DNA from: Escherichia coli
GTDB lineage: Bacteria; Pseudomonadota; Gammaproteobacteria; Enterobacterales; Enterobacteriaceae
Assembly (NCBI RefSeq): GCF_013122565.1
Contig: NZ_CP053258.1
Direction: 5' to 3' (one strand)
Length of the DNA: 64,000 bases
Every line of letters starts with the position of its first letter. Positions within the stretch are counted from its first letter, which is position 1. The translations under genes were made by a program, and so were the position numbers. Under the pieces are notes generated by a model. That model ran no database searches. It was not told where the DNA came from and worked only from the letters and a program-made list of their open reading frames with translations. This document shows positions 51,643 to 52,167 of this stretch, in pieces.

Positions 51643-52167
51643 AAAGAGGTCTCTGCGTGTAAAACATAAAACCCGCACTCCGGTCAGTGAGGCGGGGATT
51701 CACGGAGATAATATCTTTCTGAAATTATTTGGAATACAGGTACATGTGGCCAATTTGTATCAACTCAAAATGCAACGATTAATTCACTGCCGGACCTCGT
51801 CCCTGCTTGCGTAATCATTCGCTGGCACTCATTCTGTTTTCAGGCTGCTGAAGAAGCGCTCCATAGAACTTCAACGCAGGGATAAACGATATTCTCGTCT
51901 TCAAATTACTGATATCAGTTGTTCATCATTACGGCATGCGTCATCACATACATTCAACAGGAGGCAGCCCATCATTGAAAACATCATTCAATATATTTAA
52001 TTAAATCAGGACAACTGATAAATCTAATTTAACAACAAAACAGAATGATGAAGTAAAGATATATAACACAATATTTCAGAGATCAACTCAATTATTCTCA
52101 TCTTCAAACTAGCTGGCTCCTACAAAATCACTCAAAGATAGCAGGATACCTGCCCTTTCTTCTAAGG

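Follow-up and report, generated by a model that had tools for sequence, protein, structure and literature searches.

A probable backbone-cargo seam between a CP4-like GTPase operon and an AT-rich fimbrial module in an Escherichia coli island at serX

The 525 bp between the start of a GTPase gene and the stop codon of a ToxS-like gene (positions 51643-52167 of the window, the 64,000-nt stretch of E. coli contig NZ_CP053258.1 analyzed here) are very probably an ordinary mosaic seam within a genomic island, with three unrelated pieces lying end to end, rather than a single functional element. The proximal 95-125 bp (51643-51735/65) are the conserved leader of a CP4-like GTPase operon, which is followed by a remnant of an IS3-family transposase gene and then by AT-rich, lineage-specific DNA (Table 1). 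We consider it highly likely that the island is a CP4-57/CP4-6-like integrative element, with the tRNA-Ser gene serX as its insertion site, and that the interval is the seam between its backbone and its cargo. The backbone/cargo boundary of the serX island is thereby fixed to within ~100 bp, and the value of the analysis lies mainly in annotation and island dissection: the GTPase start is corrected, an IS3 scar is identified, and the "ToxRS-like" pair is assigned to a rare fimbrial cargo module, not to the CP4-like backbone.

Table 1. Features in and around the interval between the GTPase and ToxS-like genes
Feature	Position	Strand	Basis or detail
GTPase gene, YeeP/YkfA/YfjP family, 291 aa	50767..51642	-	Pfam MMR_HSR1 5.9e-16
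Terminator-like element in GTPase leader	51661..51696	-	RNAfold -12.6 kcal/mol
Inverted repeat TTCAG-N15-GTGAA, inner palindrome AGATA-t-TATCT	51699..51723	-	read in sequence
Predicted sigma-70-type promoter of GTPase operon	51708..51734	-	in-register alignment with K-12 ykfA, yfjP
Backbone extension, subfamily of CP4-like GTPase loci only	51736..51765	-	blastn
IS3-family transposase remnant (OrfB, C-terminal part), unannotated in RefSeq	51757..51870	-	blastn, tblastn
AT-rich tail, 3' flank of ToxS-like gene, lineage-specific	51871..52167	.	GC 0.343
ToxR-like and ToxS/FidL-like genes	52649-53521; 52168-52656	-	8-nt overlap

The island, its backbone and its cargo

The tRNA-Ser(GGA) gene lies at 42956-43043, with island genes from 43193 onward and the core genes ghrA, ycdXYZ and csg on its other side. 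The island runs from serX through a module that extends from the toxin-antitoxin genes to the GTPase, then through the cargo, YfjJ/YfjI/AlpA and an IS3-disrupted integrase to ycdU; in the identical island of PapRG-06-5, the portion outside the window contains the integrase pseudogene, split by IS3, beside ycdU. Domains at the far end include AlpA (PF05930, 3.9e-18), DUF3987 (3.8e-67) and YagK_YfjJ_C. RefSeq annotation of the identical region places the GTPase, DUF932, antirestriction, RadC/JAB, DUF987 and YeeU/CbtA genes in the conserved distal module, where Pfam also detects MMR_HSR1 and WYL. The operon of the backbone reads, in order, GTPase, HTH-WYL, DUF932, antirestriction, RadC/JAB, YeeT and YeeU-CbtA.

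The GTPase gene is the first gene of this conserved module. Related genes are present in 4,674 of 5,426 E. coli genomes (about 86% of complete ones), and a scan of IMG/VR with the GTPase found two loci only. Both genes that flank the interval lie on the minus strand, within open reading frames (ORFs) of 50767..51678 (GTPase) and 52168..52656 (ToxS-like). The RefSeq GTPase coding sequence of 876 nt begins at ATG 51642, which is also the start in all homologues, and the N-terminus MTKPHGL is conserved. The alternative start at GTG 51678 was rejected; the extension that it would add runs through a conserved hairpin, and RefSeq and the homologues use the ATG. Because the gene starts at 51642 and not at 51678, the intergenic gap is 525 bp.

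The cargo consists of ToxR-like/ToxS-like regulators and a chaperone-usher fimbrial operon that is now interrupted by IS66 fragments. The ToxR-like protein contains a Trans_reg_C domain (residues 35-109, 6.8e-12) and, as read from the translation, a hydrophobic stretch at ~175-195; its best NCBIfam similarity is to CadC. The 162-aa ToxS-like partner has an N-terminal hydrophobic segment in the translation, no Pfam or NCBIfam match at E<=0.1, and a weak pairwise match (23%, E 0.009) to an annotated FidL-like protein. The name "ToxS-like" thus denotes position and topology, not membership in the ToxS/FidL family. The partner's own family is very rare, with four clusters among 5.8 billion proteins, and the distant relatives share only 35% and 33% of their amino acids. 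In Enterobacter hormaechei, synteny with a chaperone-usher operon is seen (regulator 41% and chaperone 63% identical), and the AT-rich cargo module is found in 3 of 5,426 complete E. coli genomes. Elsewhere in the same genome, an annotated wHTH and FidL-like pair lies beside another fimbrial operon.

Composition and homology across the interval

An earlier note, made from the sequence alone, had described ~490 bp of AT-rich, non-coding DNA without an ORF, a visible shift from GC-balanced to AT-rich DNA, and a candidate recombination junction between independently acquired segments. The compositional break is real. A single-change-point likelihood fit over 50767-53521 places it at 51708 (2-log-likelihood interval, 51696-51882), with a GC content of 0.575 on the left vs 0.331 on the right, and the sliding GC profile, which the note had proposed as a check, drops in the same way. 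The GTPase coding sequence has a GC content of 0.578 and the CP4-like module one of 0.525; the interval as a whole is at 0.387, and the ToxS-like and ToxR-like genes are at 0.327 and 0.310, respectively. Within the interval the composition is uneven, so that the description as AT-rich holds for 51871-52167, the only part to match the AT-rich module, but not for the leader (51643-51756, 0.43) or the IS3 fragment (0.47). The longest ORF within 51679-52167 on either strand is 29 aa, in agreement with the note, whose left edge is corrected to 51643. That ~490 bp of AT-rich sequence should lack long ORFs is statistically unremarkable by itself, and the term "non-coding" conceals a pseudogene fragment of an IS.

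The homology break is equally real. A megablast search returned 897 matching records, of which three cross the junction; the others among the matches listed (H4-H30) end at 51733-51735. In local blastn comparisons, the CP4-like homology ends at 51735 in three loci (L005-L007) and at 51765 in another (L003). When 60 of 4,680 matching records were sampled across their spread, the homology mostly ended at 51730-51743, and 12 of the 60, a subfamily, reached 51750-51762. Matches H57-H64 all end at 51765, and the E. coli M-17 sequence covers 51661-51765 at 84% (blastn). Thus, homology stops at 51730-51765 in all sampled genomes except for three complete ones, all with the same serX island. The comparison with homologous islands that had been proposed beforehand therefore supports a junction: among the records sampled, no independent CP4-like island is continuous across it, and the IS3 remnant lies exactly at the break. 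The claim of independent acquisition is borne out for the origins of the segments but not for their arrival, as both probably reached the chromosome together, as cargo in a single CP4-57/CP4-6-like element whose limits are serX and the distal integrase. A copy of the AT-rich module that predates the junction was looked for and not found; all contigs that encode the identical ToxS-like protein carry the identical junction, which is the same in the three complete genomes, and the 525 bp are matched without a mismatch in seven further public contigs.

The IS3-family remnant and the AT-rich tail

The middle piece corresponds to codons ~280-317 of OrfB, the IS3-family transposase. Its 38 codons contain three in-frame stops, and it lacks the final ~32 codons of the gene as well as either end of the IS. 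By tblastn it is 66% identical over 38 aa, including the conserved MERFFxSLKTEW region; by blastn it matches an annotated IS3-family transposase gene at 85% over 100 bp and ISEc31 of O157 Sakai at 75% over 116 bp, in a segment set ~105 bp in from the end of that element. No annotated feature lies under match H31. The fragment is not accompanied by an OrfA, a catalytic core, terminal inverted repeats or a target duplication, and blastn and tblastn detect no other IS3 homology within 51600-52300. A gapped tblastn extension to 51703 was unconvincing, and homology beyond 51757 or 51870 was not accepted. An origin from the intact IS3 element that interrupts the integrase of the island was likewise rejected; at 80% over 84 bp, that is a different copy. 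In the scheme that we propose, an IS3 element would have been cut on both sides by deletion, and the scar would mark the site of a joining or rearrangement of cargo and backbone. The IS may have had a causal role in this joining; the data fit either order of events, and the insertion could postdate the joint.

The distal piece, the 3' flank of the ToxS-like gene, is untranslated, has the composition of the AT-rich cargo module and is inherited with it. It contains no detectable gene and occurs only alongside the ToxR-like/ToxS-like pair; its matches in E. coli are confined to the three genomes that carry the serX island. No homologues of 51866-52200 were found in plasmids or phages, and in two distant relatives (L008, L030) homology ends at the ToxS-like stop codon; the right-hand limit of the cargo is placed no more precisely than 51871. 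A weak minus-strand hairpin at 52153-52141 (fold z-score, -0.31) could terminate the ToxRS-like transcript. At 51890 and 52093 the tail also carries direct repeats of 19 nt, which agree at 17 of the 19 positions. Together with inner inverted repeats, these were considered as a possible MITE, a reading that was rejected; only one copy of the tail exists in E. coli, and the repeats are probably due to chance.

The leader of the GTPase operon

The earlier note had also proposed that the interval is a likely promoter region for the GTPase operon, which is supported for the proximal ~95 bp, where the sequence aligns with the regions upstream of ykfA and yfjP, but not for the AT-rich part. The predicted promoter is composed of a -35 hexamer TTCCAA (51734-51729; 3/6 matches to consensus) and a -10 hexamer TATTAT (51713-51708; 5/6 matches), which are separated by a 15-nt spacer, short relative to the usual 16-18 nt. 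The K-12 ykfA and yfjP genes are preceded by TTGAAA-15-TATCAT, in register with the TTCCAA-15-TATTAT of the window. The ykfA and yfjP promoters are listed as constitutive RpoD promoters, located in spacers to which the RpoD holoenzyme bound in genomic SELEX (gSELEX), a method of coarse resolution, in which the hexamers were chosen by the authors' inspection (Shimada et al. 2014, PMC3946193). From these elements, the transcript would start near 51701. Conservation among CP4-like islands stops just upstream of the -35 hexamer, and in several islands a same-strand ORF ends 5-20 nt before it.

The inverted repeat takes in the -10 hexamer together with the promoter spacer and the predicted start site; a DNA-binding protein may use it as an operator. 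The window contains a single copy of it, and the rest of the island has none. The arrangement TTCAG-N15-CTGAA is kept upstream of K-12 ykfA and yfjP and in locus L032, which was retrieved by protein and not by motif and has retained the leader even though its GTPase is only 65% identical. Nine of the leaders compared were retrieved by a 25-nt string that had to match exactly within the block, so that their invariance at those positions is by construction; the unbiased comparisons are those with loci retrieved by blast or by protein.

Downstream of the predicted start, a GC hairpin (51696-51672, CCCGCCTCAC..GAGTGCGGG) is followed by a T-run (51671-51661, TTTTATGTTTT) that ends 17-18 nt ahead of the GTPase ATG. 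As in an intrinsic terminator, the GC-rich hairpin directly precedes a U-tract on the transcribed strand. All 14 of the leaders compared contain such a hairpin (-9.7 to -20.5 kcal/mol), and their T-runs lie 13-17 nt before the ATG. In a covariance-model alignment of 19 leaders, which is fitted to the model structure, 92.4% of the cells are paired, and compensatory double changes are seen in 6 of the 10 pairs; none of 500 shuffles paired as highly, and slid controls were 35-69% paired. A consensus scan for promoters and terminators missed this bulged hairpin, and its promoter-like sites in the interval are not enriched (4 vs 2.7 expected). The supplements of E. coli K-12 3'-end mapping studies make no mention of ykfA, yfjP or yeeP, and a literature search on the yfjP, ykfA and yeeP leaders found nothing beyond the gSELEX promoter list.

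A possible switch in the leader

Judged from the order of these elements, RNA polymerase that starts near 51701 would meet the hairpin and U-run almost immediately, and the backbone operon would therefore be expressed by read-through only (attenuation). The leader terminator would also stop same-strand transcripts arriving from upstream cargo, in this case the ToxRS-like pair, and so would insulate the backbone from any cargo present. The inverted repeat probably serves as the docking site of a regulator, encoded by the island, that would control how much initiation or read-through occurs. Termination or attenuation in vivo, like the binding of a regulator at the inverted repeat, is thus predicted from sequence.

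A more general, and rather unlikely, proposal is that the leader is a switch common to CP4-57/CP4-6-like islands, in which transcription terminates after ~45 nt unless an island factor docks on the inverted repeat in the promoter spacer and renders RNA polymerase resistant to the terminator. Candidate factors are the HTH-WYL protein and, from the analogy with AlpA of P. aeruginosa, the AlpA-family protein. An ordinary repressor operator combined with a constitutive attenuator explains the anatomy of the leader equally well. If the switch were true, the expression of antirestriction, RadC and toxin-antitoxin genes would be coupled to activation of the island and insulated from its cargo. A promoter followed directly by a covarying terminator hairpin, at the head of the backbone operon in so common a family of islands, offers a testable handle on how cryptic islands keep antirestriction and toxin-antitoxin genes quiet and shielded from transcription of the cargo.

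Alternative readings of the interval

The strongest competitor concerns the IS3 fragment, which might be incidental: cargo and backbone would already have been adjacent when an IS3 element inserted upstream of the promoter and then eroded. The upstream edge of the leader is a general cargo boundary, because the CP4-like islands sampled each have different DNA directly upstream of the leader and most lack an IS there. The fragment is also old, as judged by its divergence (85% to the nearest IS, 80% to the intact copy in the same island) and its three stops. However, it lies exactly between 51765, where homology to the backbone ends, and 51871, where lineage-specific DNA begins; K-12 CP4-6 has the IS3-family element IS911 just past its first cargo gene, and IS66 scars bracket the neighboring cargo blocks, consistent with IS-driven cargo shuffling. 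We consider an incidental fragment possible but on the whole doubtful.

Other readings give the interval a function or a different kind of boundary. AT-rich DNA of this kind (GC 0.34) is bound by H-NS, and the scan contains a second promoter-like match, TTGGCC-18-AATAAT (51753-51724), so the whole ~490 bp might be an extended regulatory region of the GTPase operon, with curved DNA, H-NS nucleation sites or distal promoters. Yet there is no conservation upstream of 51735/51765 among thousands of homologous operons, promoter-like matches are not enriched over expectation, and the segment upstream of the leader includes a dead transposase fragment, which together make such a region improbable. 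That the interval hides an unannotated gene for a small protein or small RNA is slightly less probable still: ORFs of 20-29 aa are present, the promoter-plus-terminator pair alone would give a ~40-nt RNA, and there is the 19-nt direct repeat, but homologues are lacking for the small ORFs, which overlap with the IS pseudogene, 51871-52167 is not conserved outside the lineage, fold z-scores are unremarkable, and an Rfam scan of 50500-54500 found no match at E<=1. Finally, an attachment site between two islands in tandem at serX might explain why composition and homology break so sharply within an island linked to a tRNA gene. However, the 25-nt 3' end of the tRNA-Ser gene has no second copy (<=3 mismatches) in the window or the next 48 kb, no integrase lies beside the junction, and AlpA, YfjI, YfjJ and the integrase form a single backbone block at the far end, so that we give this reading hardly any credence. 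A backbone-cargo seam within one element remains our preferred reading.

Comparison with known systems

The ToxR-like protein resembles Vibrio ToxR and Salmonella SPI-3 MarT in its N-terminal winged helix, central hydrophobic segment and C-terminal domain, and, as with ToxS and FidL, the partner gene overlaps and encodes an N-terminal hydrophobic segment. Unlike in those systems, the partner here has no family match and the pair is linked to a chaperone-usher operon. The 114-bp IS3 segment encodes the conserved OrfB motif of ISEc31/IS602-like and IS911-like elements; in contrast to these, it is a scar that is incapable of transposition.

Targets of AlpA in P. aeruginosa combine a binding sequence in the spacer with a promoter-proximal terminator and are controlled by antitermination (PMC7969949). 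The leader described here is like PalpB, and like the targets of lambda Q, in having a conserved spacer sequence and an intrinsic-type terminator between the promoter and the first gene, and an AlpA-family protein (PF05930) is encoded by the same element. The AlpA-binding motif GGGACG-N5-GGTA (ABE; PMC7969949) is absent here.

The closest relatives are CP4-6 and CP4-57 of K-12. The serX site, the GTPase (51% aa identity to YfjP), the AT-rich ToxR-like/fimbrial cargo and the weaker -35 hexamer (TTCCAA vs TTGAAA) set the present island apart from them. What it shares with both is the order of the backbone genes, from the GTPase to the YeeU/CbtA-type toxin-antitoxin pair, and with CP4-6 also the orientation relative to the tRNA gene (thrW, ykfI ... 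ykfA, perR, IS911). In both K-12 elements (ykfA-perR, rnlB-yfjP), as here, a promoter with a 15-nt spacer, the inverted repeat (TTCAG-N15-CTGAA), a hairpin with a T-run and the ATG follow one another, and cargo begins directly upstream of the leader, with IS911 nearby in CP4-6.

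The junction between backbone and cargo

The gene-free gap lies in the E. coli chromosome within a single CP4-57/CP4-6-like element, at the point where conserved backbone genes meet variable cargo. The edge of the island at serX adjoins ghrA, ycdXYZ and csg. Rightwards from this edge, the minus-strand backbone genes encode DUF4942, DUF957, DUF5983, the CbtA/YeeU toxin-antitoxin pair, YeeT, a RadC-like JAB protein, an antirestriction protein, DUF932, two hypothetical proteins, an HTH-WYL regulator and the GTPase. In strain PapRG-06-5 the identical island runs on, outside the window, with YfjJ, YfjI (DUF3987), an AlpA-family protein and an IS3-disrupted integrase next to ycdU. 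It is this CP4-like order, together with the same orientation in K-12 CP4-6 (thrW, ykfI ... ykfA, cargo, intF), that identifies the gap as the meeting point. The PapRG-06-5 tyrosine integrase by ycdU (11054-13519 of fetched locus L009, outside the window) is frameshifted and interrupted by an intact IS3-family element; thus, the island is probably immobile. No second copy of the serX 3' end was found at the integrase-side boundary in this genome.

Features in and around the gene-free gap (window positions)
Feature	Position	Strand	Remark
tRNA-Ser(GGA), serX	42956-43043		island starts at tRNA 3' end
HTH-WYL regulator	49845-50552	minus
GTPase	50767-51642	minus	MMR_HSR1 5.9e-16
Leader	51643-51735
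T-run TTTTATGTTTT	51671-51661	minus
Hairpin CCCGCCTCAC-loop-GAGTGCGGG	51696-51672	minus
-10 TATTAT	51713-51708	minus
-35 TTCCAA	51734-51729	minus	followed by 15-nt spacer
IS3-family fragment	51757-51870
AT-rich tail	51871-52167
19-nt direct repeat, TATTCTCGTCTTCAAATTA	51890-51908
19-nt direct repeat, TATTCTCATCTTCAAACTA	52093-52111
5-bp hairpin	52153-52141		T-poor tail follows
ToxR-like winged-helix gene and small partner gene	52168-53521	minus	ToxS-like partner, 52168-52656
IS66-family transposase fragments	~54180-54770, ~62236-62600		flank fimbrial operon
Chaperone-usher fimbrial operon	55993-61190		cargo side
AraC-type (ydeO-like) gene			truncated; past fimbrial operon

Within 51679-52167, the gap as first delimited, no ORF of at least 30 aa appears in the ORF listings. 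The GTPase start then assumed, at 51678, is only a GTG extension; the start in RefSeq, and in all homologues, is the ATG at 51642 (291 aa), and the extension (51643-51678) passes through the conserved leader hairpin. The true gap is 525 bp. The break in base composition, from a GC of 0.578 in the GTPase gene to 0.31-0.33 in the ToxRS-like genes, is real in both a sliding profile and a likelihood change-point fit, which places it at 51708 (interval 51696-51882). Within the gap, which the earlier note calls AT-rich, only the right-hand 297 bp (GC 0.343) truly are so, and the GC of this tail matches that of the ToxRS-like genes.

Megablast of 51400-52500 matched 897 E. coli records. Among the matches listed, three alone (PapRG-06-5, A30 and JNE23-001, at 99.3-99.9%) cover the junction, and the remainder end at 51733-51735. 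In local blastn against fetched islands, homology ends at 51735 in JX2, ECC-1470 and ATCC 8739 and at 51765 in M-17. With a more sensitive search of 51400-51764, matches appear in 4,674 of 5,426 genomes, and in a spread sample of 60 rows homology stops at 51730-51743 in 41 and at 51750-51762 in 12. The DNA upstream of the leader is different in each island compared, and the segment 52100-54000 is present in the three genomes only. Both this junction and the rare cargo module are confined to one lineage, being present in 3 of 5,426 complete genomes. Seven further public contigs encode an identical ToxS-like protein, and their 525-bp gap matches with 0 differences; in A30 the same island likewise sits at serX, and its few differences are evenly distributed along the region. 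The proposed recombination junction between independently acquired segments is supported: in the sampled islands outside the three genomes homology ends at 51730-51765, and no independent island collinear across the junction was found.

The IS3-family scar and the AT-rich tail

A fragment of an IS3-family element sits precisely where backbone homology gives way to lineage-specific sequence. A sensitive search with 51700-52167 gave matches over 51755-51870 to thousands of genes for IS3-family transposases, the best at 85% over 100 bp (51765-51864); ISEc31 of O157 Sakai matches the fragment at 75% over 116 bp. The minus-strand translation is 66% identical to OrfB around its conserved motif and contains three in-frame stops. 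The fragment, which has no RefSeq annotation, maps ~105 bp inside the IS end; the terminal repeat, the final ~32 codons and all sequence 5' of it are missing. Such a remnant is a scar of recombination or deletion, which may either have made the joint or have arrived later. It does not derive from the intact IS3 copy inside the integrase gene, to which it is only 80% identical.

The AT-rich tail has no homologues in E. coli beyond the three genomes, nor in plasmids or phages, and contains no Rfam family and no ORF >28 aa. Nor is it conserved next to the only two distantly related ToxS-like genes, whose DNA similarity ends at the stop codon. Its 5-bp hairpin is at best a weak terminator. The two copies of the 19-nt repeat (17/19 matching, 203 bp apart, with imperfect inverted repeats between them) probably reflect chance or an old duplication, because the tail is single-copy in E. 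coli.

The fimbrial cargo

The ToxR-like regulator combines a Trans_reg_C domain with a central hydrophobic segment. Its ToxS-like partner (162 aa, with an N-terminal hydrophobic segment) belongs to no Pfam or NCBIfam family, resembles a FidL-like protein only weakly, and represents an extremely rare family; among 5.8 billion proteins only four clusters of it were found, two from E. coli (one of them a truncated form), one from Enterobacter hormaechei (35%) and one from a metagenomic contig (33%). The E. hormaechei orthologous pair (41% and 35% identical) likewise adjoins a chaperone-usher operon (chaperone 63% identical); thus, the pair is part of the fimbrial cargo module. A local maximum in GC (54050-54350) falls at the IS66-family fragments, which split the fimbrial operon from this regulator pair. 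IS scars make a patchwork of the cargo. In PapRG-06-5, ~54 kb past the gap and outside the window (L009 43833-45141), a second winged-helix gene and an annotated FidL-like gene adjoin another chaperone-usher fimbrial operon near dgcT. This pair is distant from the first (27% and 23% identity), and ToxR-like/FidL-like pairs may be a recurrent type of fimbrial regulator.

The conserved GTPase leader

The leader is the sole part of the gap conserved across islands. The promoter predicted for the GTPase operon can be placed here, where the sequence aligns with the K-12 ykfA and yfjP promoters, but not in the rest of the gap, which is not conserved across islands. The K-12 leaders have the same layout (TTGAAA-15-TATCAT), and for the perR-ykfA and rnlB-yfjP spacers, both bound by RpoD holoenzyme in genomic SELEX, the same hexamers have been given as the constitutive promoters [Shimada et al. 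2014, PMC3946193]. The T-run lies 17-18 nt from the ATG, with a weak Shine-Dalgarno sequence between. A TTCAGA motif in the spacer and an inverted repeat, TTCAG-N15-(C/G)TGAA, are kept in K-12 despite a GTPase only 51% identical, and recur in a protein-retrieved IMG/VR locus (65% identity). Promoter spacers are not usually conserved in this way, which suggests that the repeat is a candidate protein-binding site.

The leader (51661-51735, minus strand; 6956-7064 and 7608-7716 of comparison loci L019 and L020) precedes YeeP/YkfA/YfjP-family GTPase genes in Escherichia, including K-12 ykfA and yfjP, Salmonella, Citrobacter, Enterobacter, Mixta and Winslowiella. In M-17 (L003 3508-3942) and two other loci (L012, L017) it precedes an internally deleted, 144-aa GTPase, which joins the N-terminal 65 aa (55% identical) to the C-terminal 82 aa (46% identical). 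Next in M-17 come dynamin-family, RdcB-family and patatin-like genes; the same leader here heads another downstream module.

The hairpin is present in 14 of 14 leaders (-9.7 to -20.5 kcal/mol), with the T-run directly after it and ending 13-17 nt from the ATG. A covariance model made from 12 leaders recovers 19, including ykfA, yfjP and one truncated copy; nine leader loci were retrieved by an exact 25-nt pattern within the conserved block. In the 19-leader alignment, fitted to the model structure, 92.4% of cells are paired and compensatory double changes occur in 6 of 10 pairs; none of 500 shuffles matches these values, and slid controls are 35-69% paired. Promoter-proximal terminators and operators are well known as such; this architecture has no description in Rfam or the literature searched.

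Possible function of the leader and comparison with known systems

Anatomy, homology and covariation are observed; the working inferred from them as the most likely is as follows. RNA polymerase would start near 51701, and the hairpin/U-run would act as an intrinsic terminator, stopping read-through from same-strand upstream cargo, which in this island means the ToxRS-like pair. Several other islands have an ORF that ends 5-20 nt ahead of the -35 hexamer, and its transcription would be stopped in the same way. The terminator would also attenuate the operon's own promoter. The inverted repeat, which spans the spacer, the -10 hexamer and +1, would be bound by an island regulator. A bolder reading, a dedicated antitermination or attenuation switch at the head of the backbone operon, is rather unlikely.

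A possible precedent for such a switch is AlpA of P. aeruginosa, which binds an element between -35 and -10, after which RNA polymerase bypasses a leader terminator [PMC7969949]. This island also encodes an AlpA-family protein, and in five compact relatives the leader has an AlpA gene 1.3-1.6 kb upstream. The published AlpA-binding motif is absent. Putative AlpA-type action is an attractive analogy; a simple operator for a repressor, such as the HTH-WYL protein from the gene downstream, is just as good a fit. The original observation is confirmed, and its junction and promoter readings hold with refinements. All parts are of known kinds (a CP4-like backbone/cargo boundary, an IS3 remnant and the flank of AT-rich fimbrial/regulator cargo); the junction and the rare cargo module are specific to this lineage, and the IS3-family scar is unannotated.
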